DNA of 64,000 nt from Amphiscolops sp. MND2022 (Eukaryota). The DNA lies in contig OZ076409.1 of the NCBI GenBank assembly GCA_964187785.1, positions 32,180,001-32,244,000 on the forward strand, read 5' to 3'. The translations under genes were made by a program, and so were the position numbers. Below are positions 1 to 60,075 of this stretch, piece by piece (position 1 is the stretch's first letter; each line of letters opens with the position of its first letter). Below the pieces are notes generated by a model. That model searched no databases. It saw nothing but the letters and a program-made list of their open reading frames with translations, and was not told where the DNA came from.

Positions 1-215
1 TATTGCTCGAAAGTGATTTTCTTCTTCTTTATTTGCGTGACGTTGTAGAGTACCTTTAAGAAAGCAATGAGGCATTTTGGCGTAATTTTGTTTTTGTGAA
101 TTTCAAGCGAGAGTTTGAAGGCCATGGTATGAAATATGGCGGCTTTAAGACTATGCACTTTCGAAAATTCAGAAGTCATTGTTAGAATGTCGTTTGTTTC
201 AGCATTTGGGGCCAT
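1..215 (-). CDS. Accessory ORF Z of the retroelement (partial, runs off the window; MAPNAETNDILTMTSEFSKVHSLKAAIFH...)
   Basis: Hand translation: ATG at 215-213, 71 codons without a stop to the window edge. Same strand and composition as the element. Confidence 0.55.
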   Translation of the reverse strand, partial: MAPNAETNDILTMTSEFSKVHSLKAAIFHTMAFKLSLEIHKNKITPKCLIAFLKVLYNVTQIKKKKITFEQ

Positions 216-624: not shown

Positions 625-1968
625 TTAATGAAGATTAGTTGAATTAAAAAGAGTAGTTATAGTTTCCAAAGCAGATTGAATTGCTTGGGATGATTGAGTG
701 ATGCGTTGAGAATCTAAATCGAGTGTCTGAAGGAGTTTATGTTTTCTGTCATAGCAGTGTAGTATATGTGTGAGTGTTGTGATAGGTGTTTCAGAAGAGT
801 TTCGTTTATAGGGTTCCAGTAAATTTGTCATGTCTCGAAGTGTGCGATTGTTTAATACAGAGGAAAGTTTGTCATGAGTGTTTTTGATAGGTGAAGTGTG
901 TGATTTATGTTCGGTTTTTTGTTCAGCTTGTACCATGAAAGAGATAGTTTTGGCAGATATAAAGAGGAGTTCATTGTAGGAATATGTTTGTTTGTAGAGT
1001 GCTGTATAGTATGTTCTATCTTTATCGTCAAGTGGAGAAGAAACGAGGTGTTTAATAACAGTAAGAGGTTTTGTAATTTGAGTAGGGATGTTGCAAGGCA
1101 ACAAAAAATCATCGTAATGTATGAGATATTCTTGAGGTACAATAAGTGGACGTGAAGTATTGTTATATGGAAGCAAACAGAAGTATTGCTTTATAGGGTC
1201 ATAATTCCGGAGGTAGCCTGTGATACAGGAGTGATGGAGAGTGTACATATTTGTCATTGTGAACGGTGATGTATATTTGTAATTGACAAAAATATAATTT
1301 TGTGGTTTCGTGTATTGTAGAAATTTAGTATATGTCTGATGATGAGAAGCTTTTTGTGCTATAGAGAGAAAGGATGGATCAGATTCATCCGTTTTGAGAT
1401 CGTATATAGAAGGTCTAAGAAAATTGAACTGGAGAGAGAAAATTTTAACTCCATTCTCGAGCCAATATTGGTATGGACCCATGATTTTGGAAGCAATGGA
1501 TGTGAAGAAGTCTTGATTTTTGTCATATAAGCGAAATGAGTAGTCAGTAGGATGCATATATAGAGAAGTGAGTTGTGCTTTGAAGACGAAATCGTCAGTG
1601 GAAAGGATTGAGATCAAATGATCATCGCGATTCGTGCAAAGTGAAATTTTTGAAGGTATTGAAGGAGGATATATCGGTGATGAAAGAAAGATTGGATCTT
1701 TCATTATTTCATATCGCTTTTTTGGACGAGGAGGTGTCGATTGTGTATGATCAGTATCATCTTGTGGAGGAGTAGGTTTTGGATTTTCATTTTCAACTTT
1801 TGTGTGTTCCATTGGTTCAAGAAAAGTTGGAGGTGTTTTGTCAAAAGTATCAATATAGAGAACAGGAGAATCATTAGAAAGAGGTCTTGTTATAAGATCT
1901 GTTGGAGTTGCTTGTTCAAGCTGTGTTTGTAGGTCAATTTGTGCTTGTGTCATTGTTTGAGAAAGCAT
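625..1968 (-). CDS. Accessory ORF Y, ~447 aa, unknown function
   Basis: Long intact ORF downstream of env; ATG at 1968. P/T-rich N-terminus with a basic PRPKKR motif, Tyr/Phe-rich globular middle, helical-looking C-terminus. Confidence 0.75.
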   Translation of the reverse strand: MLSQTMTQAQIDLQTQLEQATPTDLITRPLSNDSPVLYIDTFDKTPPTFLEPMEHTKVENENPKPTPPQDDTDHTQSTPPRPKKRYEIMKDPIFLSSPIYPPSIPSKISLCTNRDDHLISILSTDDFVFKAQLTSLYMHPTDYSFRLYDKNQDFFTSIASKIMGPYQYWLENGVKIFSLQFNFLRPSIYDLKTDESDPSFLSIAQKASHHQTYTKFLQYTKPQNYIFVNYKYTSPFTMTNMYTLHHSCITGYLRNYDPIKQYFCLLPYNNTSRPLIVPQEYLIHYDDFLLPCNIPTQITKPLTVIKHLVSSPLDDKDRTYYTALYKQTYSYNELLFISAKTISFMVQAEQKTEHKSHTSPIKNTHDKLSSVLNNRTLRDMTNLLEPYKRNSSETPITTLTHILHCYDRKHKLLQTLDLDSQRITQSSQAIQSALETITTLFNSTNLH

Positions 1969-2217: not shown

Positions 2218-4923
2218 TCAAGAAGATGGAGCGGGGAAAGGATAGTTTATTCGTGAATAGATTTTAATTGGTGTATCCGTAGTAGAAGTGACAGAATTGT
2301 TAATTAAAGTGTCATGTTGAGTAGTTAGATTGTCATTTGGGTGAAAGTTTTTATGAGTATAATTAGGAAGTGGGGGATGTTGGACAGAAGAGAAAGGAAG
2401 TGGAGTCGTTTTATGGTGAGAATTGTGGTGTCGTTTCGGAAAGAAGTTAAATTTAGGAAATTGAATTTTGTTAGATCGTTTAGTATAAAAAGGTGGAGGG
2501 GAAGTAACATCTGTAGAATGGTTAATTAAATTGGGAGAAGTGTCAATAAAGTTATCTAAAGATTTGGATTTGGAAAGTGTACTTTTGGGTTTTTTGTTTT
2601 GAGCTTCATGTAGGTCACTGACCATTCGTGCTGTAAGAACATTAAAAAAACCATGTGCAATAGAACTAAGTAAAGTAATATTATTTTTAAGATTATATTT
2701 AATGGATATTGTTTTGTAAAGTTTAACAATAAGTGTGAGAGTAGCTTGTGCAAAAAGAAAGGTAGAAAAGTATATGCCACATTGTGTAAGAATGTAACAA
2801 GGGTATCCAAAAAGTGCAATAAAAGCATCAGAGAACCATGTAGGTGTAAAAAGAGGAGTTAAGTTCAAGAGTTTATCATGTAATCCTATCCGTAATGTAT
2901 TGTAAGGATTACCAGAGTTTTGAGGGGAATCTGCATCGTAGTTTGGAGTATTAGATGAAATGAATGAATAACTAAGAGCTTTACCTAGTAATTGGAGTGT
3001 AGAATCAGAGTGTTTAGAAAATAAAATACGGTTCCAAAATTGATCAAGTTCTGCATTTGAATATATACCAGCATCTTGGGCTGTAAAAGTATTAGGGCGT
3101 ATTGTAGTTTTGATTTGTGAGGGTGTAAACATTAGTGGAGGTTTACGTTTGATAGGTTCAGGTCCAAGAATGTAGAAGTCTTGATCATCTGAATCAGGGT
3201 CTAGTTCAATAATGTTACGTGGATTAATATCGCATGTAATTGGTGTAGCATAATCATAAGTTTGTCTTGTAATAGGATCAACGTACATTAAGGTATCTTT
3301 AAAATGTATGGGTATACGGTCAAAACATCTATCTGCTTTGTATAAAGGAGATAAAAAATGAGGACAGTCATAAAGCCAGGCGGTTGAGCCTTCAACGTAT
3401 AAGAAGTTACTTCTATTACCAGTTAAAAGGAAACCAGCAAGTTGAGGATTTTGTACTGACATTGCGAGTATTGTAAGGAGTTGATTTCGTTCTAGTTCAC
3501 ATATTGTATGAAGAGTATTTAGTTCTTGTACTGTCATTGATCGAAAAACATGATTAATAGTGTAGTCAATTTTGGTGTTTATATGTGCATCATAATCAAT
3601 GGTAGCGAAATTGTTTGATACATTTAATGCAGGGAATACAAATTTGTTATTTGAAGTGTCTAATACTATTTTACCAGAGATATACTCATCAATTATGGAA
3701 TGAGGATTAGGTTGTCCTGTATGCATATTAAAACCATCAGTGTATGTAACAAAAAGGTCTGAGTATTGTGTAGAATAGAGATGGTCTGGTTTACCACAAA
3801 AGGTTTGTGCTGTAGGAAAAACTTCAAATCTTGAAAGACTTGGGTTATTTGGATGTTGTGTATGAGGAGCATGAACATAAGGGTGTTCTGTACCTTTTAT
3901 GCCAGAAGCAGTTTGAGATTTTACTGGATGTGGAGAATGTACAAAAGAGTCTGTTTCAATCCAATATCTATCTTCGATTTTAGTCATACGTCCAATAAAG
4001 TCTTGTAGGGTAAAAATTAGACAATAATCATCATTAAACCAAACAAGAGTGAAAGGAGTTTTTGTAGTGGGTTTACAAAAGCCATCTGCAAAATAGCAGG
4101 GTAATGTATGTCCATCAATTATCATGTCATTTGATGTGTCATCATATGTAAGTTCTATTTCGGAAATTTCTAGTCGCCAACTAACTAAGTTGACTTCGAA
4201 TTGATGATGAGCAGGACAATTATGATAAGGGTTTTTTGTAGGGTCATATATCCAGTTTTTATCAGCAGGCATGAATGTAAATGTACCTGTATACATTTTG
4301 TTCAATTGATATACAGTGAAAGGAGTTTGATATTGTTCTAAACGTTCTTGAAAGTAATGATCTTCTAAGAGTGTAAATGTTTTGTTGTAGTTAAGGTTGT
4401 TCAATATTTTATCATTTGTACCATTTAAATGTCTTATAATGTTTTTACATTCTACCGGATCAAGAGTAACAGGAAGTGGTAATGTATTATGATTCCATAC
4501 GGTTCTATCAACACGACGGTATTTGACAGATCCTTGAAAGCATATTTTCCTCTCTTTCTTTGCATAAGCAACACATTTGAAAGCTTTGATACGTTTAGCT
4601 TTTGCGCGGACATATACACGGGCTTTAACACTTGCATGTTTAATGTCAGAAGGAGCTTCAGTGCATTGTTTTACATTAAGTAGATTAAATTGTCTGAGAT
4701 TGTGTTGTTTTGCACAGTCATAATGAGAAACCATGAGATTTGTAATATTCGGGTCATCCGATGGAAGATAGTTTTCTGTATCAGGGTGTACTATAGCTAT
4801 AGAAAAGGTAGAGTTAAAGAAGTGTAAAAGAATTATAATTGTTATATAAAAAGTTGCGTAGGATTTAAAAGGATGTCTTATATTTGAGACCAGAGTATGG
4901 GTTACAAAAGACAATGTTGCCAT
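2218..4923 (-). CDS. env: Envelope glycoprotein, ~900 aa, chuvirus-G / class III fusogen-like
   Basis: N-terminal hydrophobic signal (FYITIIILLHFFNSTFS); Cys-rich ectodomain with many N-x-S/T sites; motifs SHYDC..LLNVKQC, HTICELERNQL..NPQLAGFLL, C..RCFDRIPI..YVDPITR..PITC; membrane segment at ~2717-2825; long cytoplasmic tail. First ATG at 4923. Confidence 0.85.
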   Translation of the reverse strand: MATLSFVTHTLVSNIRHPFKSYATFYITIIILLHFFNSTFSIAIVHPDTENYLPSDDPNITNLMVSHYDCAKQHNLRQFNLLNVKQCTEAPSDIKHASVKARVYVRAKAKRIKAFKCVAYAKKERKICFQGSVKYRRVDRTVWNHNTLPLPVTLDPVECKNIIRHLNGTNDKILNNLNYNKTFTLLEDHYFQERLEQYQTPFTVYQLNKMYTGTFTFMPADKNWIYDPTKNPYHNCPAHHQFEVNLVSWRLEISEIELTYDDTSNDMIIDGHTLPCYFADGFCKPTTKTPFTLVWFNDDYCLIFTLQDFIGRMTKIEDRYWIETDSFVHSPHPVKSQTASGIKGTEHPYVHAPHTQHPNNPSLSRFEVFPTAQTFCGKPDHLYSTQYSDLFVTYTDGFNMHTGQPNPHSIIDEYISGKIVLDTSNNKFVFPALNVSNNFATIDYDAHINTKIDYTINHVFRSMTVQELNTLHTICELERNQLLTILAMSVQNPQLAGFLLTGNRSNFLYVEGSTAWLYDCPHFLSPLYKADRCFDRIPIHFKDTLMYVDPITRQTYDYATPITCDINPRNIIELDPDSDDQDFYILGPEPIKRKPPLMFTPSQIKTTIRPNTFTAQDAGIYSNAELDQFWNRILFSKHSDSTLQLLGKALSYSFISSNTPNYDADSPQNSGNPYNTLRIGLHDKLLNLTPLFTPTWFSDAFIALFGYPCYILTQCGIYFSTFLFAQATLTLIVKLYKTISIKYNLKNNITLLSSIAHGFFNVLTARMVSDLHEAQNKKPKSTLSKSKSLDNFIDTSPNLINHSTDVTSPPPFYTKRSNKIQFPKFNFFPKRHHNSHHKTTPLPFSSVQHPPLPNYTHKNFHPNDNLTTQHDTLINNSVTSTTDTPIKIYSRINYPFPAPSS

Positions 4924-6118
4924 ATGTGATAGTGGGTATATTAAGATCGCGTTCAAATTCAATATGTACTACTTCAAAAGGAGCAGGAGAGGTTTTATGT
5001 TCTATTTTAGAAACGTGAAATATTGGGTGAGGATTTAATCCTTGAAATTTGACTTTGACTTCAAATTTAAGTTCTAAATTTGGTGTCTGAAGACGTTTTA
5101 GTTCTGTTTCTTTACGTTTATGAGATAAGAGATCGTTGTTATTAATAAAACGTTCTGCAAGAATTGGAAATCGAGGATCGTTTTGTGGGTCGTAGATAGT
5201 TATACCATCGACTCGAAGTGGATAATCAGCAAAATTTGGGGTTGGAGGTCTAGAATGTTCTGCAGTATAGTATTCAGGTAGTCTAATATGTGCAGGAACA
5301 GGAGTAGGAATTACTACTTGTGAAAAAAGATCGCCTGATAGGAATGCAGTTTGTGGATTAGATGAGAGTAATGAAGCGGTTTCAAAACCAGAAGTAAAAT
5401 AAGGAGATTGAAAGAGTTCTGAAGATGATGGGTCAGAGGACAATGGTTGAGCGTGTTGTCTTACAAGTCGTAATGCAGAATTGCTAGAAAGAGCGGAAAA
5501 ATTGAGTGTGGAAGTGTCTGTACTAAGTCTACGTGAAGGAAGGTCACGGAGATTATATCTATGTCTAGGTACAAAAAATGAGCTTGTGTCTTGTGATGGA
5601 GCGTAGTCAGAAGTATTATTGTCTAAGAGATTTGAGAGTGATGTAGAGGGCTTTCGAAGAGGTTTTAATGGTGGATAAAGTTTTGAAGAAGTAGTGCTAA
5701 GTTCTGTAGTGCTAAGTTCTGAAGGTAATTTTAGTGGAGGTAGTTTCGTATATTCAGTATCAGGAATTTGTACTAGATTAAGTTGAGGTTGGAGTCTAAC
5801 AGTTTTGATAGCTGTAGGGTGTTTGTATGTTACGTATTGTTCAACACTTTCAGGGTTTGGTATGTGTATAATAGGAGTGTTAATAGGAGTTTGTTGGGGA
5901 CGAGTGTTTATAGGAATTTCGGTTATAGGTGGTCTGTGAAGAAGTGAAGAAGAGGTTTCAGAAATGTATGATCTGGGTCTTTTAGAAGGAGTAGTAGGAG
6001 TTACATTACTAGAGTTTGTGGTGCTTGATACGGAAGATTCAGGTGTAGAAGGAATACTTGGAGCTGATGGAGAGATATCAGAGGGAGGATCCAGGATTGT
6101 TGAAGTGTTTTCAACAGG
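4865..6118 (-). CDS. ORF X, 417 sense codons with no ATG; P/S/T-rich N-half, globular C-terminus; overlaps the env start
   Basis: The listed 4865..5443 ORF stays open upstream to a TAA at 6119-6121 (hand translation). Contains PSAP, LYPPL and RYNLR motifs. Confidence 0.65.
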   Translation of the reverse strand, partial: PVENTSTILDPPSDISPSAPSIPSTPESSVSSTTNSSNVTPTTPSKRPRSYISETSSSLLHRPPITEIPINTRPQQTPINTPIIHIPNPESVEQYVTYKHPTAIKTVRLQPQLNLVQIPDTEYTKLPPLKLPSELSTTELSTTSSKLYPPLKPLRKPSTSLSNLLDNNTSDYAPSQDTSSFFVPRHRYNLRDLPSRRLSTDTSTLNFSALSSNSALRLVRQHAQPLSSDPSSSELFQSPYFTSGFETASLLSSNPQTAFLSGDLFSQVVIPTPVPAHIRLPEYYTAEHSRPPTPNFADYPLRVDGITIYDPQNDPRFPILAERFINNNDLLSHKRKETELKRLQTPNLELKFEVKVKFQGLNPHPIFHVSKIEHKTSPAPFEVVHIEFERDLNIPTITYGNIVFCNPYSGLKYKTSF

Positions 6119-6219
6119 TTATCTTGAAGATAACTTGTTATGAGTTTTATTTTATTTATTCAACATTCGTTCAACCAGAGTGACTAGGTTTGAGTAAGCT
6201 AACAGAGAGAATGACCAGA

Positions 6220-9200
6220 TTACAGTTGGGAAGGTGTAATAAAAAGTCTATAATCTAATTTGGGTTGTTGTCGCAGTTTATAAGTGGTTTTTGTGGTTCT
6301 GTCAATTAGAGGAGGAAGTGAAGTTGTTTGGTTGTTAGAAGGGTGTCTCGATCTGTCACTAGGGACATTAGTGTGAGGGGTATTAATTATATGTTTATAT
6401 AGGGAGTTGTCATTGGTTGAGGAAGGTAAAGACTTGTCATTGGATGTTATAGATGGTGTATTTTGATTGGATGTAGTAAATGATGGTGGTGTCATAAATG
6501 TTTGAGAATCTTCTTCAGACAAAGATTCATCAGAGTTAAACGGGGAAGAATCACTGTTTGCATATCTGGTAATTTGTGGAATTTGGTTTTGAGTTGTGTC
6601 TGAAAAGCGCATAAAATTACGCAAATGTGGATATAAGAGTGGTTCTTTAGGGTAATATGGGATTAAATGATTTCTATGAACGTGTACTATAGAGCCATCT
6701 TCTGCAAGTAATGCATATGTGACGTCTGATAGTCTGTCAAGAATTTTATATGGTCCAATCCGAAGGGGTTTGAGTTTGTCTGAAAAGTGAACATGTGTAA
6801 AATTGCGTTTTAAAACAAAGGTACCAATGGGAAGGGGTTTACCTTCGTGGTAAGTTTTTGTAATGTATGCGTGTGAGTTAATTTTTCGTAGAGTGTTTTC
6901 GTAGACTGTGGAGTAAATTTGTAACATAGCAGTTTCTACAGCGAGAAACCATTGTGGAATGGGTTTTGAGAGTGTTTTATAGAAGAATGGGTTTAAGTCT
7001 GATTTATCATAGTGAGAGTGTTCAGGGAGTTGAGAGCAATAACGTGAAATACATGTTTTGGAGGTATCTCGATTAAGGTTTAAATCAAATGTGAGGGGTA
7101 TTCTGGGTCTAGTATGGAAAACAATTTCATGAGGTGAAACATTGAGTTCTGAAAGTGGTTGTGAATTATGTGCATAAGCGTACATATGGACTTGAAATGC
7201 CCAATCTTTAGGTGTGTCATGTAGGAACATTCGAAGATGAGTACCAAGATTTCTGTTTTCTACTTCAACAAGGCCATTTGTCCAAGGAGAATAAGCTGTT
7301 CTAGGAGAATGACGAATTCCCATAAGTGTACAAAGGTGTGCCATTTCTTTGTTAACATATTCTGATCCACGATCAGTGACAAGGTATATGGGTGGTCCAA
7401 ATTTAATAATCCAATGGTGTAGGAGAGTTTTGATAGCAGTCTTTGCGTTGTTTGATTTGATGGGTACTGTAACAACAAAGTGACTAAAAGCGTCAATTAT
7501 TACGTGTATATAGGATTTGTTATGAGAAGGAGGATTAATAGGTCCTTTAGTGTCCATTGAGATTCTATAGTTGAAAGATGGAGCATGTTCTGAAAATGAT
7601 TGTGTAGGAGCAGTTTGAATTTTCATATTGAAGTGTTTATTACGTTGACATTCAATACAGTCATGTATGAAAATGGAAAGCCATTTTTCAAGGAATGGGA
7701 TATAGTAATATTGTTTGAATGTTTTGTAGGTGATTTTCATACCAGTGTGAGAATGTTCATGAAGTTTGTTAAAGACAGTTTTAAATAGTCGAAAAGGTAG
7801 GCATATGCGAATAGTATCTTATACAAAATTTGGAGTAGAGGATTGGTTATTAACAGTGGGGTTTGTAATGTACAGACTAATAAGATTAGTGGATTCATCA
7901 ATGAAAAGTTGTGAAAATCTTTTGTAATATACATGTAGAAATGGAGTACCAGTGATAAGAGGTGTTATAAATTCGGGTTTTTCATTGTTCAGTAACCAAG
8001 AATAAACAGTTCTGAGAACCGGATCTTGAGATTGTTGTTGTTGAAGAGTTTTTATGTCTAATGAGTAATCATCGGGGAGGAAGAAACCTTGAAAATAGTT
8101 TTTGTACTTAATGAAAGATGTATCATAAAAGGGTATAATTTGTTGACAGTGTGTGAGAGATGGGAAATGTGGTTGTACATTTATTGCAGAAATTGATTTC
8201 TGTGATGTGTTGTGACTTGGTTGTTTAAGAGTAGAATAATTTTCTGTTTGTAATGTAGTATCTTGTGAGAAAGAAGAGTCAGATTTTGGAATTCTTGTGT
8301 AAATATGATCTTCGTCATCGCTTGTAACGTCAGTATCATTAAGTAAGAGAGATTGTTGATGAAGGGTTTTGTTGTTCTTTTTTGTAGGTGTCCTAAATTT
8401 GGTTTGAAAAGGAGTTACAGATTTGAATGAGAAAGATTGTAAGGGTTTTACAATAATGTCATTTCCTTTATCATTGATACGAATAGAGAATTGATCTGTA
8501 CCATAATCAGCAAGAATTGGATGAGAGTCATGTTTTTGATGGGGTAAAATTTCTTCATGTTTTATTAAGTAATGTACAGGTTTAAGAGTGTTATCTTGTA
8601 AAAGTGCAAAATCGATTTGTGGTGGAAGGTGTTTATGTTTTAATTGGTTGAGTTGTAATTCAGCTTTTGTGAATGAGCGACTCAACATATCGGCAACAGA
8701 AAGATTTTTTCCAGGGGTGTGAATTATTTTGAGTTTTGAAAATTTTGTCAATTGCATTTGAGCTCTATAGAAACGAGGGCTGAGATTACCTTTCTTTGTA
8801 AAACAATGTAATAAAGGTTTGTGATCAGTGAAAATGTGTATTGGATGTGGAGAACCTATGATAAGAAATTCATAGATTTGAAGTGCGTGTACTATACCAA
8901 GGAGTTCTCTATCAAGTGTGGAGAGTTTTTGTTCTTGTGGGCTAAGTATACGAGAGTTGTACGATATGACTTTCATTTTGTTCTGTTCATTTAACTGGAA
9001 TGAGACAGCGCCTAATCCAATAAGGGAAGCGTCAACAGTAATGAAAAATGGATGTTTTGTATTCGGTATTGTTAATTCTGTTTCAGAAGTGAGAGACATT
9101 TTAAGTTTTTGGAATAGACTTTCGTGTTCATCTGTCCATTTCCAAGGAGTGTTTTCATGTAAAAGATCGTAAAACGGTTTGAGGTTAATATGTAGTTTTT

Positions 9201-12200: not shown

Positions 12201-14415
12201 TCTTTGTTAAGTTAAGGGCTTCAACTTGAGCATAATAAGCGTTCTTTTGTGAAGAAAATTGTTTTTTGAAAGCTTGTACAAAAGCGTGCCAATCATGTTT
12301 ATAAGTGTCGTTTAAACGGATGTACCAGCTTAGTGCTGTACCTGTTAAAGAGCATTGTATGAAAGCCATGCGGCGAGCGTGCCAAAATTTATATTCATGT
12401 TCTGAGGTAGGTTGTAAACCTAAAGAGAATGTAACACGTGCCTCAATATGTTGTAAATTTTCTTCAGGTGTATAGTTGTGATCGAGTCCATCAAAAGGTT
12501 TAATAGGTTCTGATATAGAAGTAGAAGAGTTAATATATGTTGGATGTGACATAGTGTTATGAGACATAGTAGATGGAGGTGTTGTATTATACGTAGGATG
12601 GTTTGAAATATTAGTTGAAGATATAGTTGAAGTATTAGGAAAGTGAGGGTTAGTTCTAATTGTTGTTGAAGGAGGATTTGATATTTGAAAGTGAGAGGTT
12701 TGTAATGTAGGAGGGATTGTATTGGATGTATGCTGGGAAGAAAGAGTGTTTAATTGGTTGTGTGTGTTATAATTTATTTGAGATTGTTGGGTATGACTTG
12801 GATTGGTACTGGTAAGATTGTATGATAATGGGTCAGTTAATATAGGTTGTAATGGAGGTCGAGACAGATGTCTGGCTGTAGTATAGTTAGAGGGCGGGTT
12901 AGAATGAATTGTGTTAATATTTAAAGTAGGTTGTGTAGTTTGTACTGGGTTAGTTTGAGCTGGAGTATAAGTAGAAGTTTGTATTTCAGAAGATGAAGGT
13001 GGAGTTGGTGTCTGGAAAAGTACTGTATTATTGTTCTGTGTAATAGGGTGTGTATTTGATGAGCTTGGTTGAGGAGAGACATGAGTATTTATTTGAGCTG
13101 AGAATTGAGGAGGAATAGAAGGTGGATCATAATTTCGAGGAGATAGTATTTGTGTTTGAGAGGGTTGTGTAATATTAGTATTATATTGGGACAAAACAGA
13201 AGTATTGTCGGTGATGACATTTGAAGGGTTGTCTTGATTTTGATTTGTAGTCCTTTGGGTGATATTGTGAGTAGGAATTGCTATAAGATTGGAGTCCTCA
13301 GTTATTGTAAAACTTTGTGGATTTTGTACTGTTTCATCAGAAAGTTCTGATGTATTGGGAAGTGTAGGTATTTCAGACGGGTTTGGTTGTCGCGTATCAG
13401 AGATTTGTGATTGTGGTGGCTGTGGTGATTGTTCTTGAGGAGAATCAGGATTGTGAAAAAGATGAACAAGTGTTTCTTGTGTTATAGATTCTTGTTCTGA
13501 TTGTTCTGATTGTTGTCTTATATATGGAGGTTCAACATTAAAAGTTCGTGTTTGAAGAGTTGGTTGATGTAAAGTATCAGATGTAATATCAGGTCTACTG
13601 TCTGACGTTTCAGAATGTTCAAGTACAAAGTTGTGATCTAGGTTTATTTGTTCAAAATGTGTAGCATTTAATGAAGTAAGATCTATGTAATGTAAATGTT
13701 TGTTTTTATTGTCTATAATGTATGGTAAGAGTTCTATATCTGTTAATGCTTTTGGGAAGTTAGTATAAGCGTTTTGGTCTTTTTGTTCCCAAAGTAATTG
13801 GTAGTTAAATCTAAAGAATTTTAATAAGAAATGTGTAAAAATTTTGACTTGAGGTATAGTGTCATCTGTAAGGGTGATTTTTGTAAAGAATTTAAACTCG
13901 AAATTCTTTACTTGTAATATATCTCGTTGTAGCCAATAATGAGGGTTACCATGTCTTTGAACTTTTGTGTCAAGATCAGGGACCTCGAAATATTCAGATA
14001 AGTGTTTGAGTTCTTGTAAATGAGAAGGACGATAAGGTGGTATGTCTTGGTGTTCATTGAATTCAATGAGTTTTTGTATTTATGTGCGAAAAACATCTTG
14101 TATAGAAAGTGTAATATTCTGTGGGTGTATAGTTCTATAAAACGTTCCAGAGTTTATTCCTTTAACAGGGTTAAAAATAACTTGGAAAGGAGTTTGTGAA
14201 GGTGTTATGTCAAGTGTTTTATATTGGATATAATATAAGTAGGAATCACAATGTTCTCGTATTAATGGAATAGTGTGTAATATATGGGGTTCTGTTTCAA
14301 ATGGAAGTGGGTTAGTGTACTGAAAGATAATATTTTGGAGAAAAGGTGTTACATATTGTATAAGAGATCGATTTTGTCTTTTATCATTAGAGACTGTAAA
14401 GGGAGTGGGGAGCAT
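6220..14415 (-). CDS. gag-pol: Gag-Pol polyprotein frame (~2731 codons) interrupted by two in-frame TAA codons (14080-14082, 7819-7821)
   Basis: ORFs 14080..14415, 7819..13194 and 6220..7740 share one frame and the gaps between them are stop-free. Motifs: CSYCHRTNHSISAC knuckle; LLDSGAS protease; YIDD RT; RNase H VDAS/RELLG/FTDHKPL/VADMLSR; integrase HEHSH..CIEC, MDTKGP/TDRG/GLVE and GPY. Confidence 0.93.
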
Positions 14416-14424
14416 TATATGATA

Positions 14425-14664
14425 TTAGATTTGATTAGTACAATAGGATTGCCATAAAGGATAGATGTATCGGAAAAGAAGATATTTTGTATTAAATTGT
14501 GAATTATATGGTAAAATTTGATCTATGAAAATAACTTGTAGGAAAATAGTAAGTACAATACTTATGAAAAGAAGAAGTGGGTTTTGTATATATTGAATAA
14601 GTTTTTTGAAAGTGTGGTATATATTAAGTAGTCCAAAAAGAGGTAGTATTATACTTGTTAACAT
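14425..14664 (-). CDS. Possible upstream small hydrophobic ORF (79 aa)
   Basis: ATG start; stop 9 nt before the gag ATG; hydrophobic segment LLLFISIVLTIFLQVIFI. Confidence 0.35.
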   Translation of the reverse strand: MLTSIILPLFGLLNIYHTFKKLIQYIQNPLLLFISIVLTIFLQVIFIDQILPYNSQFNTKYLLFRYIYPLWQSYCTNQI

Positions 14665-15128
14665 AGAAGGAAAAGGTTGTACTTTAAAATTTTGGTATGA
14701 ATGAAATTAAAAATTTGTCTAAAAAAAGTGCAAGACCGGCAACGATAGCAACAAAGAACCAAAAGCAGACAATGAGTTTGACTACAATGTCTACTGAAGG
14801 CGGCATGTACAATAAAGTTCTATAAAAGTGTGTCAAAAAGTTATACAAAATTTTTGTTGTATATAGGTGTATGAAAAATGAAAGTAATGTAAAGAGAGGT
14901 GTGATATATGTGTTATATATCTGAATTGTTATATATTTGGATCCGTAAGAGAGTTTTAAAGAAGTTTTGTATGTAGTTTGTAGTATAGAAGAGAGAATAA
15001 GAAAAGTATTATAATGATGTTATGGAAAAAGATGTGTTATATAGGTGTGCCAACTTTAAAGTTGATCCAAGCGGCTAGAACCAAAGAGATTTTTACTAGC
15101 AGGAATCGCTGGATAGCACTGTAGAAGG

Positions 15129-15310
15129 GCCAACACGTATCGCACGTCTGCGGTTGGAACGAAAGAAAGAGAGAAGAAGAAAGCCAACACGAATTCACTC
15201 AGAGGTGGTTGGAACGAAAAAGTTAACTGACAGGAATTACGTGAAGAAACGTAGTCAGAACCAAAAAGTATGACTGACAGGAATTACGGTGATGAACGCA
15301 GTCAGAACCA
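15129..15310 (-). repeat. Two pairs of duplicated hairpin-forming motifs in the 5' leader
   Basis: gccaacacg...ggttggaacgaaa occurs twice (stem ccaac/gttgg); actgacaggaattacg...agtcagaacca occurs twice (stem ctgac/gtcag). Confidence 0.6.
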
Positions 15311-15487
15311 TAGCAACACGGATCAATTTCAAGTAGAAATTGGTTGCAACGTTGAAGTTAATAACGGTATGCAATGTTGAGAGGTGGAGAGACTGTGTGT
15401 CGAACAAAGAGATATCGAATGAGAAAGTTGAGGAAAGGTGTACAACGATTGTAGATGTGTGAAATAAATGGGAGAGAAAGAAGAATT

Positions 15488-15502
15488 TTCGTGGTCGCAC
15501 CA
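15488..15502 (-). promoter_or_regulatory. Putative primer binding site (tRNA-Arg-like)
   Basis: TGGTGCGACCACGAA, 2 nt after the ...AACAGCTCA end. Resembles the complement of animal tRNA-Arg(UCG) 3' ends (TGGCGACCACGAA) with 2 extra nt. Confidence 0.55.
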
Positions 15503-15504
15503 AT

Positions 15505-15983
15505 TGAGCTGTTAAAAAGTTTGGTGGTTGTTTCTTTTATACAAGTTAGAACTGACATAAGAAGTCTAAGATTTTAACAGCGGAGTCGTCTTATCTTTTA
15601 TCTTATAGCTAGCTAGTTCAGAGTACGATCTATTTCTGAGATCTCAGTTCTTGAAGTGTTGGAAGAAGACTGATTGCTAGGAAGATTTCTCAATTTCTCC
15701 AAGTAGATATATTCTATTAACTAGGGTAGGTTACATCAATTAATAATGTGACAGCAACAGGATAAAGCAGGGAAGTTTGATACAGGATCTATTAAATGAA
15801 GTTTCTTCTAGAATAATTGGTTTCTAGATTCAATTAGATTTACTAATTTCTTCGGTTAAGAGTTCAGAGTATTTCAGATTTATAAAATCTTTGAGGACAT
15901 GCATCATGGCATCACAGAGGTGATAAGAACTCTGACTCATACAGGTATAAGAAAGTTTCTTCAGAATGAGATATTGTTCTACA
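15505..15983 (-). repeat. Putative 5' LTR (~480 bp; outer end uncertain, 15983 or 15987)
   Basis: Minus strand reads TGTAGAAC...CAGCTCA directly before the PBS, and the strand skew ends here. The partner LTR is not in the window. Confidence 0.5.
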
Positions 15984-31849: not shown

Positions 31850-33173
31850 TCGCGTCACATATAAGGCTCAAAAATAGCGAAAGGACTTCAAAGTGTCAAA
31901 GTATTCTCTTCTACAGCACCCCAAAACCCAAACGTTGGACCAGATTGGCGCACCAGGGAGAAGCTTTGCGACTTTTCATCCATTCTGTCGCAAATCATCG
32001 GAAGAAAATCATCGCTTTGGTGAAAAAGTTTTTTTTTGAAAAAGTCTCACAATGCCGAAAAAAACAAAGGGGGGACCCTTAGGTATTTTTCAACATCCGA
32101 TCTGCCGTAAAACTCCAAAAGTTGAAGGGGAGCCTTTGTGAAAAAAATTTAGTCGAAAAAGTCAAGCTATGTCGAAAAAACTGAAACGGGACCCTTTGGT
32201 CTCACATGGTATTGTATGTTACGCGCGAAGAAGGAAAACCATTTTGGTTCAGTTCCCTGGACCAACGGGTACATGTTAAAATTTCGTAGAACTTTTGGTA
32301 GAAATAATTTGGTCACTTCAGGTGTATCGAAAAAATCTCAAAAAGCCGAAATTACATCTAAACTTTGAAAACGTTATTTCCGAACTTTGAACATGCTATA
32401 TCCGAACTTTGCAAACGTTATATCCGAACTCTGGAAACGTTACATCCGAACTTTGAAAACGTTAAATGCGAACTTTGAAAACGTTATGTGCGAACTTGAA
32501 AACGTTATATCCGACCAAAATCTAAAGAGGCAGCTTATAAAATCTATCACCTCGTTGGTTTCAAAAACTGCAAGTGCTATAGTCCGCGTTCTCTACGAGA
32601 AGCGCCGACTAAAAAGAGACTTGGATAAAGAATGAGGTCCTCCATGTTCTTACCTAGAAACACACGAGCGGCAGTAACTTGTTTTTAGTCGGCGCGTTTT
32701 CCTTTTAAGGAAAAATGCCCGACTATAGCAGTGACCTTTTTTTTTTCTTCAGACTACAATCCTCACACTGATCGGTCCACTTTTTACAATCCTGCGCAGA
32801 GCACCTGAGGCCAAGTCGCCCAAAGCAAACTTTACTCCAAAGGGTCCCCCCTTTCATTTTTCACTTTTTCAAGGAAACATACATAACCGGACGTGCCCAA
32901 AGGGTCCCCCCTTTGGATTTTTTTCGGCACTGTGCGACTTTTTTTCGAAAATTTTTTAATGTCCCCAAAGGGTCCCCCCTTTGAGTTTTTTGATATTTTG
33001 CAACGGAATGTTTGTTAATAAATCCAGAAGGGTCCCCCCTTTTACATTTTTCGGCACTATGCGACTTCTTTTGAAAAAATTTTTTTCAAAAATTTCAAAT
33101 TTTTTCCAAAAAAAGTGTTTTACGCTTTTTGAGCCTTAGATATGGCGCCGACTTTAGACGTTCTCGTCTTGTT
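31850..33173. mobile_element. Non-autonomous element with inverted subterminal repeats and an internal ~21-bp minisatellite
   Basis: aaggctcaaaaa (~31863) is inverted against tttttgagcctt (~33126); ggggaccctt / aagggtccccc repeats; (ccgaactttgaaaacgttatat)n at ~32360-32515. Confidence 0.55.
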
Positions 33174-43691: not shown

Positions 43692-44016
43692 TGTAAATTG
43701 TGTATATTTCCCTTTGGAAATTCAATGTATATTTCCCTGTGGAAATTCTCTCTGAATTCAATCTGATTCAAACGAGGTTTTTAACAGAAAGAGATTCAAT
43801 TAATGCTAGAAGAACGGAATAATCAGAGTTGAAATGTGGGAACTACCTAATCTGAATGGTTGAAAACAAAACCAATGAGTTTTACCGCACAAAGGTGTGA
43901 ACAAAAATCAAACTTCATACGTGAAACAATATCATTAGTTGCATGAACAGCATGGCAACGTGTCAGATAAACATGCCCAGAATAAAATTGAACTAAACGA
44001 AATTTTGGCGTTAACA
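43692..44016 (-). repeat. Bel/Pao 3' LTR
   Basis: Direct repeat of 48468-48792 with about 4 substitutions. Confidence 0.97.
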
Positions 44017-44259
44017 TACTCCGCCCCTTGGACTATCAGTTCAATATAAATGGGTCTCAATATATATATGGTCTTTCAGAGTGTGAAAATGCGATCAACC
44101 AGATCACAAGCTGTGCGTCCGAGTGGCGATGACGCCTTGCGTGAGCTCTTCACAGAGGTGGAGAAGGGGGCGGTAAAGAGCAAGCGCGTGTCAAGGGTGG
44201 CCGGACCATCGGAGATCGTCGTCGGCGAGCCCTGCGTGGTGTCCTCATCTGTGGTGACG

Positions 44260-46424
44260 CCCAGGGACGGAACAAAGTTTGTTGTTGACCAGAGTGCAGT
44301 GTTTCCCCATGCGCCTCGTGGATCAATAGCCTTGCCAGTGGAGTGTCGCCATCCAGGAGAATGGGGAATTTCTTGCTGTAAGGGTAGTTGGACTGAGATA
44401 ACCTCCCCCCAACGCGAAGAAGACACGTGCTATCTTCAATGAAAGGATTCAAACTCCGAATTTTGCTAACTCTAGTCAATTCCTGGTTTTTCTGCAGCTT
44501 TTCTAGCTCGGATTGGAACGAATTAGCTTGTTCGCTTCTCAGGATCTCAATACGAGCTTGTTCGAAAATTTCAATCGCCTTCCGAACAAGTGCAAATGTA
44601 CGAAAGAGTCGTTTCGATGAGGAGAATCTAGTAATCTGGATTACCTCTGAAGGGAGCGTAGAAGGCATCGAGAGCACTTGCTTGTTCTGCTTGACCTCCA
44701 AGTCGGTCTGTTTGGAGATTTGTTGCTGCTTGGGCCACTTTGTAGAATCTTGAGACAGCCAAGTCGGACCGTTCCACCAATTGGAACTTCTTGAGGCTCG
44801 GTATGTCCAACCCACGTGAGGCACTATCGGCTGGGTGGTCAGCAGTTCCAACGTGGTTCCATTGATTAGGCGGTAAGACTTCTTGAATTTGTGAAACTCT
44901 GTTGGCGACGAAGCAGTTCCATCGTCTCGGCAAACTTGAGATCCATGCTATTACTATTGTAGAATCTGTCCAAGCGACCCTGCTGGTGATGACGAATCCA
45001 CCTCGTTCCAAGGCAATGCTGGTGGCCTTCATCAACTTGCTAGCTAGTAGAGCTGCACACAACTCCAGTCGAGGCAGACTAACTGATTTTACTGGAGCAA
45101 CTCTTGTCTTTGCTGCGAACTTTGTTTCAATGCTATCACTGGTTGTGATTCGGGCGTAGATGGCCGCTGCATAGGCACTCTCTGAAGCGTCTGCGAAGAC
45201 ATGTAGCTGGATTTCTTCCTTCCGGTGATAGGACACTTGTCGAGGAAATCGAATTCCGTGAAGATTCTTGAGTTCTTCGTGAGTAGCTTTCCAGATCAAG
45301 TCAATATCTGGAGGAATGGGCTCGTCCCACTTCAAACCTCGTGTCCAGGTGCTCTGCATCAGAATCTTCAACTTGATTGTACATGGTGATAGCCAGCCCA
45401 TAGGATCTAAAGTTTCAGCAATTTCGGAGAGTAAGATTCGCTTCGTTTAACCGTTTTTGTACATTCCTCGATATTGGAAATTGAATGTGTCGCTGCTAGG
45501 ACACCACGCAACTCCGAGTGTCTTGATTGTGTAGTCATCTTTCTGAAGGTCTAGAACGGTCTTGGTTTCACGGAGAGCTTCAGGTAGGTCTTCCACAACT
45601 TGGGGAGCACACGATGACCATTTTCGCAATGGAAGTCCGAATTCGTTCAAACGCTTCAATAGTTTTTCTTGCAGTGTCTTGGCTTCCTCTACTGATTCTG
45701 CACCAGTAAGAAGATCATCTACGTAGAAACCGTTCAAGATAGGTCCTTTAACATCTGGGCCAGTCGATTGATGTCCAGCTTCTTGGAGTGCGCGTATTGT
45801 GTGAAATGAAGAAGAACTGATTCCATACGTCACGCGTTTCATTCTCAGATGAGATACGTCTGTTTGGGATTCAAATTTCCACAGGATCCGGTGGAAATCT
45901 TTCGCGGGAGTATCGAGCTTGATCTGTCTGTACATTTTCTCCACGTCTGCGGACAGAGTCACTGCGTGGACTTGGAAACGTAGGAGAATTCCAAAGATGT
46001 CGTCTTGTATCTTTGGACCAATCATTAGATTCTGGTTTAAGGAACGATTACTCGATGTTTTGGCTGAGCCATCAAATACGACACGCAGCTTTTTGGTCGT
46101 GCTGCTATCTTTTATCACGCAATGATGAGGAAGGTAGTTCGATCGATTGGGTTCTATTGCGATCTCATCAGAAGGGATCATTTCCATGTGATCCATTTGG
46201 AGGAATTCCTCTATAAAGTCTGAATACTTCTTCTTGAGATCAGGATTTCTCTCCAGCTTCTTCTCAAGCTGATTGAAGCGCTGTCTGGCTGTAGCTAGGC
46301 TCTCACCTAGGGGTTCTGTATCACGTTTGAAGGGCAAGGAAACAATGAAACGTCCGGTTTCATCTCTTGTCGTAGTTTCCTTGAAGTGATCTTCACAATC
46401 GATTTCTTCTTGGCTATGTTTCAT
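44260..46424 (-). pseudogene. pol: Bel/Pao pol: RT, RNase H and start of integrase, frameshifted and truncated
   Basis: YLPHHCV, LRVVFDGS, ADVEKMYRQI, FYVDDLL; FADAS, PRLELCAA, WTDS; RVGGRL..H..TLH, with the integrase core absent. Confidence 0.92.
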
Positions 46425-46532
46425 AGCAGCAGGGAGTTCTTACAGCTCCCAGAAGCGAGAGAGCTGGGCGTCTGTAGAAACGTGATGAGATCTCACTTGA
46501 CTCGAAGGAATCTTCGTTTGACCTGTCACTAC

Positions 46533-48383
46533 TCATCCGAAAACAGTGTCTTTCAGAAAAAGGTTTTCATTTTCCTGAATCTTCCCTCCAAGTGTGAACT
46601 TCTCTGTGACATCCGCTCCGAGGAGGATGTCAATTGACGACGGTTCATTGAATCGAGGATCGGCTAGTTTCAAATTTGCAAGATTCTTGAAATGCGATTG
46701 AGGCACTGGACTTGAGGGTAGATTGTTTGTGATCTTCGTGAGGACGAAAGCCTCCACAATGACTATTCTCTGCTCGACGATAATGGGTATGTCGACAGTG
46801 GCTCGAGATTTGACCTGGTTTTCACTTCCAAGGCCGTTGATCTCCATGTAGTTGCGTTTCTTCGAAAGACCAAGTGTTTGAACACATGATTCAGTGATAC
46901 AACTGATTTCTGATCCTGAGTCGAAAAACGCTCGGCAATACACTGAATTGTTTGCTCGGCTCTGAACTGATATCATTGCTGTAGGCAGCAAGGTCTGCTT
47001 CGAGAAGGTATGAGAAGAATGGTTACTAACACTTGCCGAACCCCTTGTCATTGAAGATCTAGATTCATCACCCCGTGGTCTTTGCTGATGAATGAGAGTG
47101 TGGTGTTTGCTGCCACACGTCCGACATTTGTACTGACTCGAACACTCGCTTGCTGTGTGTCCCTTTCTAAGGCAGTTGTAACACAAGCCGTTAGATTGCA
47201 CCATCTTGAGTTTGTCTTCTATGATGAGATCGTTGAAGGTTTGGCATGCTTGGATTCTATGATTCTCTCCGCAACAAAAGCATAACTCTGCCACGCCAGA
47301 GTACACGGCTGTCTTCGAGGAGCCGTTGTCTGGAGGCCTAGATCCACTGGAACGCCACTGGGAGGACCTCGTTTCGCTGGAATGCTTCGCGGATGCATGG
47401 AGCACACTTTGAAATTTCTGTGATTTTGACACCTCACATGAACTTTCTAGTGCTCTACATCGTCTCTCAAGGAAGTTCTTGAACTGGTCGTACGATTGTA
47501 AATCCGATCCAGTAGATGACATTTCCCACTTCTCACGAGTCTCAGGATCTAATTTTTCAGTGACCAAGTGTAGAAGTAGAAAATCACATTCCTTGACGTT
47601 GACTCCTTGATTTTCCAGAGCTCTTCGATTTTGGTCCAGGATTTCTTGAACATTTCTGAGTATTCGCACGTTCTCTTGATGACCCTTCGGAATAGACATC
47701 ATGGCTTCAATGTGCGCTTTCACCAGTGCTCTCTTATTCTGAAATCTGTCATTGAGAATGTCTCGAGCGATTGCATAATTTGCGTCGGTGACGGTGATCG
47801 ATGAAAGCAATCTCGCGGCGTTTCCTTTTAGAGCTGTTTTCAGATATTGCAATTTCTGCGAATCAGACAAATTTGTGTTATTGTGTAAGGAGGATTCAAA
47901 ATTGTCACGAAATGAAGTCCAATCGAGATAGTTTCCGTCAAAGTTCGCTAACTGCATAGTGGGTAGTTTCATTTTCGCGCTAGACATCGTCGGGTTGGCT
48001 ATGGAAGCTGCTTGCACTGAGGCATCCAATGAGGTTTCCTCGAGTCGTCTTCTCATTTGCTTGAGCAATTTTCGTACATCGGTAGAATAGTCCGATGCAA
48101 CATCAACCTCGTCCTCTAGATCCACATCTTCCACCAGTTCTTCGATTTGCTTGATCTTCGATTCAATGTCTTTGAGCTTGAGGGTTATTGCTTCCTCCAA
48201 ACGCTCAATCTCTTCTTTCTGTGAAGTAGTCAAGGCATGACCTGGAATCCTGAGAAGGGCTTCCGAGGCTCTGGTGAGTCTTGTGATGACTCCTTTGTGC
48301 GCTGATCGCGACTTGTTGAGTCTAGTCAGCTGCTGTTCATCAGTGGTTGATGAACCAGTTTGTGCGCTTTCTGGACTTGACAT
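46533..48383 (-). CDS. gag: Bel/Pao gag-protease
   Basis: KLP..L..FDG..W..F, QKLQYL; three Cys/His knuckles (CFCC..H..C, CYNCL..GH..C, CRTC..HHTLIH); FFDSGS protease; DILLGAD. Confidence 0.92.
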   Translation of the reverse strand: MSSPESAQTGSSTTDEQQLTRLNKSRSAHKGVITRLTRASEALLRIPGHALTTSQKEEIERLEEAITLKLKDIESKIKQIEELVEDVDLEDEVDVASDYSTDVRKLLKQMRRRLEETSLDASVQAASIANPTMSSAKMKLPTMQLANFDGNYLDWTSFRDNFESSLHNNTNLSDSQKLQYLKTALKGNAARLLSSITVTDANYAIARDILNDRFQNKRALVKAHIEAMMSIPKGHQENVRILRNVQEILDQNRRALENQGVNVKECDFLLLHLVTEKLDPETREKWEMSSTGSDLQSYDQFKNFLERRCRALESSCEVSKSQKFQSVLHASAKHSSETRSSQWRSSGSRPPDNGSSKTAVYSGVAELCFCCGENHRIQACQTFNDLIIEDKLKMVQSNGLCYNCLRKGHTASECSSQYKCRTCGSKHHTLIHQQRPRGDESRSSMTRGSASVSNHSSHTFSKQTLLPTAMISVQSRANNSVYCRAFFDSGSEISCITESCVQTLGLSKKRNYMEINGLGSENQVKSRATVDIPIIVEQRIVIVEAFVLTKITNNLPSSPVPQSHFKNLANLKLADPRFNEPSSIDILLGADVTEKFTLGGKIQENENLFLKDTVFG

Positions 48384-48467
48384 CTTGAAAGGAATGTCAA
48401 GTAATGTCACAGAGGACGAATTGATCTTCTTTTCCGGTTTCTGTATCCCGGGTGGTCGCGGCACCAA

Positions 48468-48792
48468 TGTAAATTGTGTATATTTCCCTTTGGAAATTCA
48501 ATGTATATTTCCTTGTGGAAATTCTCTCTGAATTCAATCTGATTCAAACGAGGTTTTTAACAGAAAGAGATTCAATTAATGCTAGAAGAACGGAATAATC
48601 AGAGTTGAAATGTGGGAACTAGCTAATCTGAATGGTTGAAAACAAAACCAATGAGTTTTACCGCACAAAGGTGTGAACAAAAATCAAACTTCATACGTGA
48701 AACAATATGATTAGTTGCATGAACAGCATGGCAACGTGTCAGATAAACATGCCTAGAATAAAATTGAACTAAACGAAATTTTGGCGTTAACA
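48468..48792 (-). repeat. Bel/Pao 5' LTR
   Basis: Direct repeat of 43692-44016; followed by the PBS. Confidence 0.97.
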
Positions 48793-58900: not shown

Positions 58901-60075
58901 CCAAAACTTCTTGTCTTCAACGGAACCGTCTGAGATAGGCTTGTCAGAAAATGAAAAGAGAAAATGTACAGATCCTGAATTGCTAAAAGCAATCCCAGGC
59001 CCTGACCTTTCCTCCGTGCTTTCTTCATGGGGGAAGAGGCGAGAGACAAATTAGAAGTTATTTTAACTGAGTACGAAGATCTATTTATGAAAAACAAGTC
59101 TGACATAGGCAGGTGTAAAATAGCAAAGCATAGAATAGAGTTAGAGCCGGAGGCTATACCACACCGGGAAGAAGCTAGACGAATGTCTCCTGATAAGGCG
59201 GCAAAAGCCAATCAGGAAGTGCAAAACTTGCTGGCTCTTGGTCTGATTCAACCCTCCTACTCTCCGTGGGCCAGTGGCATAGTCATGTTAAAAAAGAAAT
59301 CAGGCGAGCTTCACTTCTGCTGTGAATTCCGCCCGCTAAATGATATAACTGTGAAAGATGCGTTCCCATTGCCCAGGATAGATGAGAGTCTCTCGAGGAT
59401 TGGAAATGCAAAGATCTTTACCAGCATTGATTTGGCGTGGGCCTTTGGCAGATTCCATTGAAAAAGTGTGACCGCAGAAAGACTGCATTCGCGTGTGAGC
59501 TTGGCCTATTCGAATGGCGACGAATGCCCTTTGGGCTGTGCAATGCATCGGCCACCTTTCAACGACCGATCAAAAGAGCTCTTCAAAAGATCCAACAACG
59601 ACATGGAAGTGTTGTCATGGCAAACATCGACGACTTAGTGATAGCAACCGAAGATCATTTGGAAAAAGATCATTTGGAAAGAATCAGAGAAGTGTTTGAA
59701 TGTCTCAGAGAGGCCGGCTTCAAGATGCGAGCCGAGATTTGCGACTTTATGCGCACCGAAACTAAATACCTCGGAAGAGTAGTTTCCTCCGAAGGCATAA
59801 AGCCAGACCCGGCTGCTGTAAGCAAAATCCAAGAGTGGATGACCCCGAAAAATAAAGAAGAGCTACAAAGCTTCCTTGGATTTGCGAACTACTACCGAGA
59901 CTTCATTCCTTTCCATGCCGCCAAGGTACAGCCTATGCAGGAATTGTTAAGGGAGAATCAACACTTCTACTGGAACGAGAAGCACCAGGTAGCGTTCGAT
60001 TTAGTGAAACAAGCACTAGCTGACGCCACAGCCTTGGCAGCGCCAAACATCAAGGACGTTTCGGTTTGGATAAGG
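56000..60075 (+). mobile_element. Decayed Ty3/Gypsy gag-PR-RT, cut off at the start of RNase H
   Basis: Knuckles CFNCG..H..DC and CINCG..GH..DC; MIDIGSG and FLLGRNFL (protease); SPWAS, IDLAWAF, MPFGLCNASATFQR, NIDD, LQSFLGFANYYR; many frameshifts. Confidence 0.92.

Follow-up and report, generated by a model that had tools for sequence, protein, structure and literature searches.

A conserved gene with a probable CUG start between pol and env of an env-bearing Ty3/gypsy element from Amphiscolops

Introduction

Ty3/gypsy elements that carry an env gene, the 'ancient errantiviruses', are known and widespread, and their envelopes are of the herpes simplex virus gB type or Chuviridae-like (PMC13524379). 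Retroviral late domains comprise the P(S/T)AP, YPXnL and PPxY motifs (PMC12789967), the YNLR core is the contact to the nucleosome acidic patch in lamin A and in foamy virus Gag (PMC12527912, PMC12125541), and p12 of murine leukaemia virus (MLV) unites a late domain and a nucleosome tether within one small particle protein (PMC6021111). Rice tungro bacilliform virus (RTBV) employs an AUU start and a stretch of 900 nucleotides (nt) without AUG, in which short internal upstream open reading frames (uORFs) are tolerated (PMC5902531). We describe an additional gene, ORF X, located between pol and env of an env-bearing Ty3/gypsy retrotransposon of Amphiscolops sp. MND2022. The element resides on the minus strand of a 64,000-nt stretch of DNA, hereafter called the window (assembly GCA_964187785.1, contig OZ076409.1, positions 32,180,001 to 32,244,000), to which all coordinates refer.

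Like the ancient errantiviruses (PMC13524379), the Amphiscolops element has long terminal repeats (LTRs), a gag-pol gene with the integrase last, a downstream env of class III type and many near-identical copies. It differs from them in its size of 18 kb and in three extra ORFs, X before env and Y and Z after it.

Results

A conserved coding frame between pol and env

The frame of ORF X is open for 417 codons from stop to stop (6118..4865, minus strand) and contains no Met codon, as the initial annotation of the window had pointed out. The overlap with the start of env that was claimed there is equally real, since the env ATG at 4923 sits 56 nt before the X stop. The coding part likely begins at a CTG at 6094 and would then comprise 409 rather than 417 codons.

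4865..6094, minus strand: ORF X, from the conserved CTG to the stop, 409 codons
2218..4923, minus strand: env, encoding a fusion glycoprotein of class III type whose cytoplasmic tail carries a PPxY (PF24664, E 8e-24)

The predicted product starts with about 265 amino acids (aa) rich in Ser, Thr and Pro (S/T/P; 43%) and continues into a conserved domain of about 140 aa.

The element family is abundant and young in the Amphiscolops genome, where the best 40 of 2787 candidate DNA matches are 98-100% identical and 150 of 150 scored matches are identical over the C-terminal 131 aa of ORF X. The X region is present in all of the 30 closest loci, with an open frame in most. Genome loci were further gathered using database homologues as queries; of 142 loci examined, 126 bear the X signature, 10 are 5' halves and six are misses, and 116 remain after removal of repeats. 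The 94 copies that are open from the CTG onwards (71 in families A and B, 23 in family C) are referred to below as open copies. ORF X recurs between pol and env in four families (A to D) whose X sequences share about 35-57% identity, and its frame is kept in all eight subfamilies (A1-A4, B, C1, C2 and D), at identities as low as 34-48%.

Pairwise ratios of nonsynonymous to synonymous substitution rates (dN/dS) between subfamilies are 0.11-0.26 for the whole of ORF X. Within families, the C-terminal domain shows 0.07-0.17 and the N-terminal part 0.12-0.30; comparisons between families reach 0.3-0.5 with dS near saturation. Nowhere is a value of about 1 seen, which the initial annotation had named as speaking against its own proposal of a separately encoded protein. 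Between families, the C-terminal domain of X is 41-49% identical, whereas the integrase core reaches 63-74% and env 60-67%. Judged from its sequence, ORF X is a real protein-coding gene, because its frame and a low dN/dS are kept across subfamilies, and the proposal of a separate protein is thereby borne out.

A CUG codon as the probable start of ORF X

6089..6097, minus strand: ATC-CTG-GAT, putative CUG start codon in A-3/G+4 context (114 of 116 distinct loci, eight subfamilies)

Similarity between families sets in abruptly at the pattern A-N-N-CTG-GAT (window 6094). The core A-N-N-CTG-G is found in 114 of the 116 loci, the two exceptions being a variant with GTG and a deleted copy. Visual inspection of three of the six missed loci showed the CTG pattern in two and a TTG in one. 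The A at -3, the CTG and the G at +4 are constant while positions -2 and -1 vary (TC, AT, AC, TA, CC), so that the preceding residue changes (Ile, Asn, Thr). A-3/G+4 is a favourable context for initiation (PMC5902531). Among other Leu codons CTG is rare, accounting for 0-4 of 44-96 in pol and env fragments. In eight representatives we found 52 invariant columns of four- or sixfold degeneracy, of which the CTG column alone keeps a single codon and the other 51 vary; this control is partly circular, the sequences having been cut at the CTG. The site had first been noticed by alignment. In several subfamilies the nearest upstream in-frame stop lies only 3-8 codons before the CTG, and no stable hairpin is found 3' of it (z -1.9 to +0.6). 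We consider it very probable that this CUG is the start codon of ORF X. A non-AUG start had been one of two options offered initially, and it can now be pinned to a conserved codon in A-3/G+4 context. A splice acceptor within the PSAP codons was also considered and was dropped, that AG being absent in A3, B and D.

Depletion of AUG between the CUG and env

4924..6091, minus strand: AUG-poor stretch from the CUG to the env AUG, with ATG at 6006 (1-codon uORF) and 5208 (2-codon uORF) only
6181..6186, minus strand: YAGTC motif 5' of the CUG, which may be an initiator or a splice acceptor (A1 49/51, A2 9/10, A4 3/3, D 3/3; absent from B, 8/8)

The initial annotation had missed an AUG desert that appears to tie ORF X to the translation of env. 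Met is absent from 92 of the 94 open copies, with about 3-7 expected, and the equally S/T/P-rich linker of Gag holds 2-4 Met per 400 aa. Out-of-frame ATG is likewise scarce: four representatives contain six, compared with 27.3 after codon shuffling and 17.5 after synonymous shuffling, the lowest of the 64 trinucleotides. A second four-family set gives six versus 29.5 and 17.2, the two sets being related pairs and dependent on each other. The controls are undepleted (env 91 versus 73-75, Gag linker 39 versus 29-37, ORF Y 57 versus 51-53). Most B and C copies have 0-1 internal AUGs between the CUG and the env start, and A copies have 2-5. In family A the env AUG itself precedes the X stop by 56 nt, and in B and C it follows that stop by 1-29 nt. 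This arrangement fits leaky scanning of the kind known from RTBV, because a near-cognate start is combined with AUG depletion in all frames and with an env AUG at or just after the end of X.

How might the RNA for X and env arise? A GTRAG donor is lacking in four of five leaders, and such donor-poor leaders lean towards an internal RNA start over splicing. None of the 124 upstream regions at the loci collected is joined to a leader, no genome-wide search for processed copies having been made. Joints are also absent from 48 low-depth contigs of one read run of unspecified kind, which is uninformative on expression and splicing. In five family-C loci, the sequence GTCTAGAC and a second GTCT word are kept after the pol stop, about 260-300 nt upstream of the CTG. 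We liken GTCTAGAC to a Smad-binding palindrome, which may mark an internal promoter.

Short motifs in ORF X

6059..6070, minus strand: PSAP, TSG101-type late-domain motif, codons 9-12 (68 of 71 open A and B copies)
5666..5680, minus strand: LYPPL, an (L/I)YPxL ALIX-type late-domain motif (91 of 94 open copies)
5546..5566, minus strand: RHRYNLR, containing a YNLR motif like that of acidic-patch binders (YNLR in 92 of 94 open copies)

PSAP and LYPPL are found where the initial annotation had placed them, RHRYNLR is present as listed there, and the frame that carries all three recurs in A1-A4, B, C1/C2 and D. (L/I)YPxL lies in disordered sequence, and the surroundings of YNLR are disordered and basic. 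The conservation of the two late-domain motifs, however, turned out to be unequal. (L/I)YPxL is widely kept, with x being P, K or R (LYPKL and LYPRL in B and C, IYPRL in D), whereas PSAP is found in none of the 23 open C copies. A1-A3, B and D have their PSAP 8-10 codons after the CTG, encoded by differing synonymous codons; in D it was seen at one locus. RHRYNLR, which had been listed initially without a role, contains the most conserved motif of ORF X and matches a known nucleosome-binding motif; YNLR is doubled in the database protein P0120 and in family D. The initial annotation had cautioned that the motifs might be due to chance, and shuffling of the disordered part bears on this unevenly, with P[ST]AP arising in 3-5%, [LI]YPxL in 1-2% and YNLR in 0.1-0.2% of cases. 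PSAP is not covered in the searched text of PMC7828637.

No P(S/T)AP or YPxL occurs in the first 1830-1866 aa of gag-pol in five of five open stretches (A1, A3, B); family C Gag was seen in pieces only.

Related motifs exist elsewhere in the element. The cytoplasmic tail of Env (window about 2218-2700, minus strand; four loci; A1, A3, B and C2) keeps a PPxY in four of four families (PPFY, PPKY, PPHY), possibly a NEDD4-type late domain on Env itself. The last residues of the integrase tail (6220-6290, minus strand) are Y(N/K)(L/F)R in four of four families, YKLR in the window copy; this motif, of the same class as in X, might be a nucleosome tether.

The C-terminal domain of X and its relatives

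The model of the C-terminal domain (predicted local distance difference test, pLDDT, 80) consists of two helices followed by five strands. It finds no match at E<=0.001 in BFVD or PDB; its best structural match in VIA (Z 3.3, root-mean-square deviation (rmsd) 4.2, 51 residues aligned) decides neither for a new nor for a non-matrix fold, and the best ESM Atlas score for X, 0.82, is a lead only. No Pfam family falls below E 0.01 for X or 26 aligned members, and a profile of X has no sequence match in PDB. X is not detectably related to the N-terminal domain of Gag or to ORF Y, and a predicted complex of its C-terminal domain with the Gag N-terminal domain, run without alignments, scored 0.00, which speaks neither for nor against an interaction.

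The listed homologues of X are unnamed ENA/JGI proteins only (153, 267 and 89 in separate searches), some at 35-40% identity. Their leading Met may often be the gene caller's reading of another start codon. No relative was seen in viral contigs or phage records. Proteins of 773-2205 aa likewise yielded no fused form, a weak line of evidence. P0120 and P0224 have no close copy among the scored candidates in the Amphiscolops genome, and P0254 has none at E<=1e-30. One database protein, P0067, fuses an integrase tail to the C-terminal domain of X; this single sequence looks like an internal deletion.

The host element

ORF X sits inside an LTR element of about 18.07 kb with the gene order gag-pol, X, env, ORF Y, ORF Z. 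Its LTRs are 412 bp long, 99.5% identical, bounded by TG...CA ends and flanked by a 4-bp target duplication.

15505..15916, minus strand: 5' LTR, 412 bp
1.7-2.2 kb past the left edge of the window, minus strand: 3' LTR, 99.5% identical to the 5' LTR
15485..15502, minus strand: TGG-starting sequence resembling a primer-binding site, first 11 nt common to A1, A3, C1 and C2
6220..14415, minus strand: gag-pol (gag, protease, reverse transcriptase, RNase H, integrase), ATG at 14415
625..1968, minus strand: ORF Y, starting with AUG, about 447 aa, conserved in A, B and C
1..215, minus strand: start of ORF Z, about 150 aa, extending out of the window

By its LTRs, target duplication, primer-binding site, domain order and a fusion gene after pol, this is an env-bearing Ty3/gypsy element. 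Its gag-pol matches the Pfam families Retrotrans_gag, RVT_1, RT_RNaseH, Integrase_H2C2, rve and SH3_Tf2-1, the protease motif was read from the translated sequence, and two in-frame stops, near 14080 and 7820, interrupt the window copy. Env matches PF24664 (Monjiviricetes_fusion) in A1, B and C2. ORF X begins 79-125 nt after the pol stop in family A.

Several observations concern the remaining parts of the element. ORFs Y (about 440-500 aa) and Z (about 150-200 aa), both AUG-started, come after env in families A, B and C (four loci). ORF Y has 88 invariant columns and an identity of 35-71% between families. It matches no Pfam family at E<0.05 and is strongly depleted in out-of-frame TTA (55 versus 94-100 in four loci), which no long antisense frame explains. 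Gag starts with a conserved domain of about 260 aa (window 13600-14415, minus strand; 39-65% identity between families, four loci), followed by a long S/T/P-rich linker before a capsid-like part; this domain has no Pfam match, its model is poor (pLDDT 48), and the fold that matches it best (Z 6.0, rmsd 3.0, 86 aligned) is a helical bundle of a common kind. Among the several uORFs of the leader, which is about 1.1 kb long (14420-15500, minus strand), are hydrophobic ones with 40 and 79 codons right before the gag ATG in three A1 copies; the leader could possibly allow shunting or reinitiation.

Other elements in the window

43692-48767, minus strand: element with ORFs at 44150-48497, flanked by a 99% direct repeat, presumably of the BEL/Pao type as judged from its translations
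56011-63962, plus strand: second, broken gypsy-type element whose long repeats are separated by 6.2 kb, with part of a third copy

The window further contains tandem repeats, namely three palindrome-containing units of 615 bp that are 100% identical (50971-52545) and a 22-bp array (32352-32497).

Discussion

Little is known outside Drosophila about the budding of env-bearing gypsy elements and the coordination of their Env with particle proteins. The Amphiscolops element offers a testable answer in the form of a hidden accessory gene with ALIX/TSG101-type and nucleosome-binding motifs, likely coupled to env by its CUG. Such a gene is invisible to AUG-based annotation and can be missed by surveys that require AUG. 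Equally, surveys with a short limit on the pol-env gap can miss such elements; the gap measures 1297 nt in the window copy, and one step of PMC13524379 allows up to 1000 nt.

How might ORF X act? We envision ORF X as a conserved fourth gene of the element that starts at CUG. A subgenomic RNA would begin between the end of pol and the CUG, weak recognition of the CUG would yield X, and the remaining ribosomes would scan on to the env AUG of the same RNA, thereby linking the amounts of X and Env. On the evidence of AUG depletion and gene arrangement, we regard this chain as likely, with somewhat less assurance than the CUG itself. At the level of the protein, (L/I)YPxL, together with PSAP where present, may recruit ALIX and TSG101 to Env-bearing membranes and so fill the lack of a late domain in Gag, and YNLR may dock at the H2A-H2B acidic patch and keep the incoming core on chromatin. 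These activities are read from short motifs, and we hold them to be about as probable as their contrary. An even chance is also what we would grant the reading that we favour overall, in which X is a stand-alone, p6/p12-like adaptor for budding and chromatin that is made together with Env.

Several observations weigh against parts of this proposal. A2 and A3 carry 2-5 internal ATGs, some of which open uORFs of 11-46 codons, one internal ATG in family B stands in G-3 context, and the env AUG in family A has a C at -3. Tests for ATG depletion in single families are partly non-significant (A3 p 0.02-0.10; C2 p 0.0007-0.14), adding to the mutual dependence of the two four-family sets and the partial circularity of the codon-column control. 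The sequence between pol and X is poorly conserved, and YAGTC is absent from B. All loci are best matches to protein or DNA queries, so the sample is biased towards well-kept copies. PSAP is missing from the open C copies and displaced in A4, and no obvious membrane anchor or myristoylation signal is seen in X by eye. Finally, only one of the two motif classes may matter, because budding and nucleosome binding pull in opposite directions within the cell.

X might be CUG-initiated and co-expressed with env, and yet be mainly a nuclear, chromatin-bound regulator, such as a transactivator or anti-silencing factor, with the late-domain-like motifs serving trafficking or turnover. This is the chief rival, and we consider it unlikely rather than remote. 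It would be in keeping with YNLR being the most conserved and least chance-prone motif and occurring twice in P0120 and family D, with PSAP being dispensable in C, and with the PPxY of the Env tail, which could itself cover budding. However, (L/I)YPxL is kept equally well with its x free, PSAP persists through synonymous change in A, B and D, and coupling to env translation would better suit a particle component than an early regulator. A captured gene is a rather different origin to consider, since env matches Monjiviricetes_fusion and X lies directly upstream of it: X could be the matrix gene of a negative-strand RNA virus, acquired with the fusion gene in M-G order. Matrix proteins of rhabdoviruses and filoviruses have a disordered, late-domain-bearing N part ahead of a helix-plus-sheet domain, and X is laid out in the same manner. 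Yet X matches no Pfam family and no PDB sequence, its listed homologues all are unnamed ENA/JGI proteins, and a length of about 410-445 aa together with YNLR is unlike typical matrix proteins, so that we deem capture improbable. The 'matrix-like' part of the initial proposal is conjectural.

Scarcely more probable than capture is that X represents the 3' exon of a spliced gene, with an upstream exon supplying the AUG and the CTG either encoding Leu in the usual way or belonging to a different signal. Env RNAs are spliced in many gypsy elements, and in A and D, YAGTC supplies an AG at a distance of 43-140 nt 5' to the CTG, preceded in D by a branch-point-like CTAAC. In A1, A3 and A4, however, this AG lies upstream of in-frame stops and would be unable to join an AUG to X, the interval from the last stop to the CTG contains no AG in those copies of A1, A3 and C1 that were read, and the AG in the A1 PSAP codons is not shared by A3, B and D. 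The scarcity of leader donors and the lack of leader-joined upstream regions described above point the same way, and an upstream AUG would leave the depletion of out-of-frame AUG in X unexplained. An AUG delivered by splicing, the other initial option, is thus unsupported; a splice that delivers just a non-coding leader may occur and would be compatible with the reading we favour. The least probable alternative, and one largely refuted, is that X extends Pol by way of read-through or a frameshift, or else is a leftover without coding function whose motifs are due to chance. The short distance from the pol stop in family A, the Y(N/K)LR common to the integrase tail and X, and the fusion in P0067 could be taken for an extension, but P0067 is single and deletion-like, several subfamilies have in-frame stops 3-8 codons ahead of the CTG, and the length and sequence of the spacer vary widely. 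A non-coding leftover is excluded by a dN/dS far below 1.

Env-bearing gypsy elements, accessory ORFs in gypsy elements and non-AUG leaky scanning in pararetroviruses are each known, and their apparent combination here is new to the searched literature. Neither this element nor a CUG-started ORF ahead of a gypsy env was found described in the literature searched, whose coverage excludes most subscription papers and Repbase. The searched text of PMC13524379 gives no hit for CUG, late domain or splicing, and three short motifs of the element are not found in its seven text supplements, while figure-only supplements could also bear on this. The sequence evidence for the X gene and its CUG start is strong, and the role proposed for X is plausible.

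Accessory ORFs of gypsy-type elements that serve cell-to-cell spread or act in the nucleus have been described as sORF1 and sORF2 of the Drosophila MDG1 group (PMC11952523). MDG1-group elements lack env, sORF2 is a short membrane protein, and the search in that paper was confined to canonical start codons. With respect to translation, ORFs I-II-III of RTBV are the closest parallel, as they too combine a non-AUG start of an upstream ORF, a long AUG-free stretch, a downstream ORF reached by scanning and tolerance of short uORFs. RTBV is, however, a plant pararetrovirus that uses its AUU after a ribosome shunt on pregenomic RNA, whereas X would use a CUG on an internal RNA of an LTR element with env downstream, as deduced from sequence. 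With respect to chromatin, the chromatin-binding sequence of prototype foamy virus Gag and the tail of lamin A (PMC12125541, PMC12527912) present the same YNLR core with its Tyr, Leu and arginine anchor. They share just this four-residue motif with X, the flanks being different (RHRYNLRD, RHSYNLRS, RHRYNLRN).

MLV p12 and p6 of human immunodeficiency virus type 1 (PMC6021111, PMC12789967) resemble the N-terminal part of X in being disordered, proline-rich carriers of late domains, p12 being a nucleosome tether as well. No sequence homology is claimed, and p12 and p6 are cut from Gag, whereas X is encoded separately, measures about 410-445 aa and has a folded domain of its own. Tentatively, and with less confidence than in the adaptor role itself, we suggest that, in this lineage of animal LTR retrotransposons, late-domain and chromatin-tether jobs have moved from Gag to a separate, CUG-initiated gene that shares a leaky-scanned RNA with a class III envelope, such that budding machinery and fusogen would be switched on together, apart from gag-pol.

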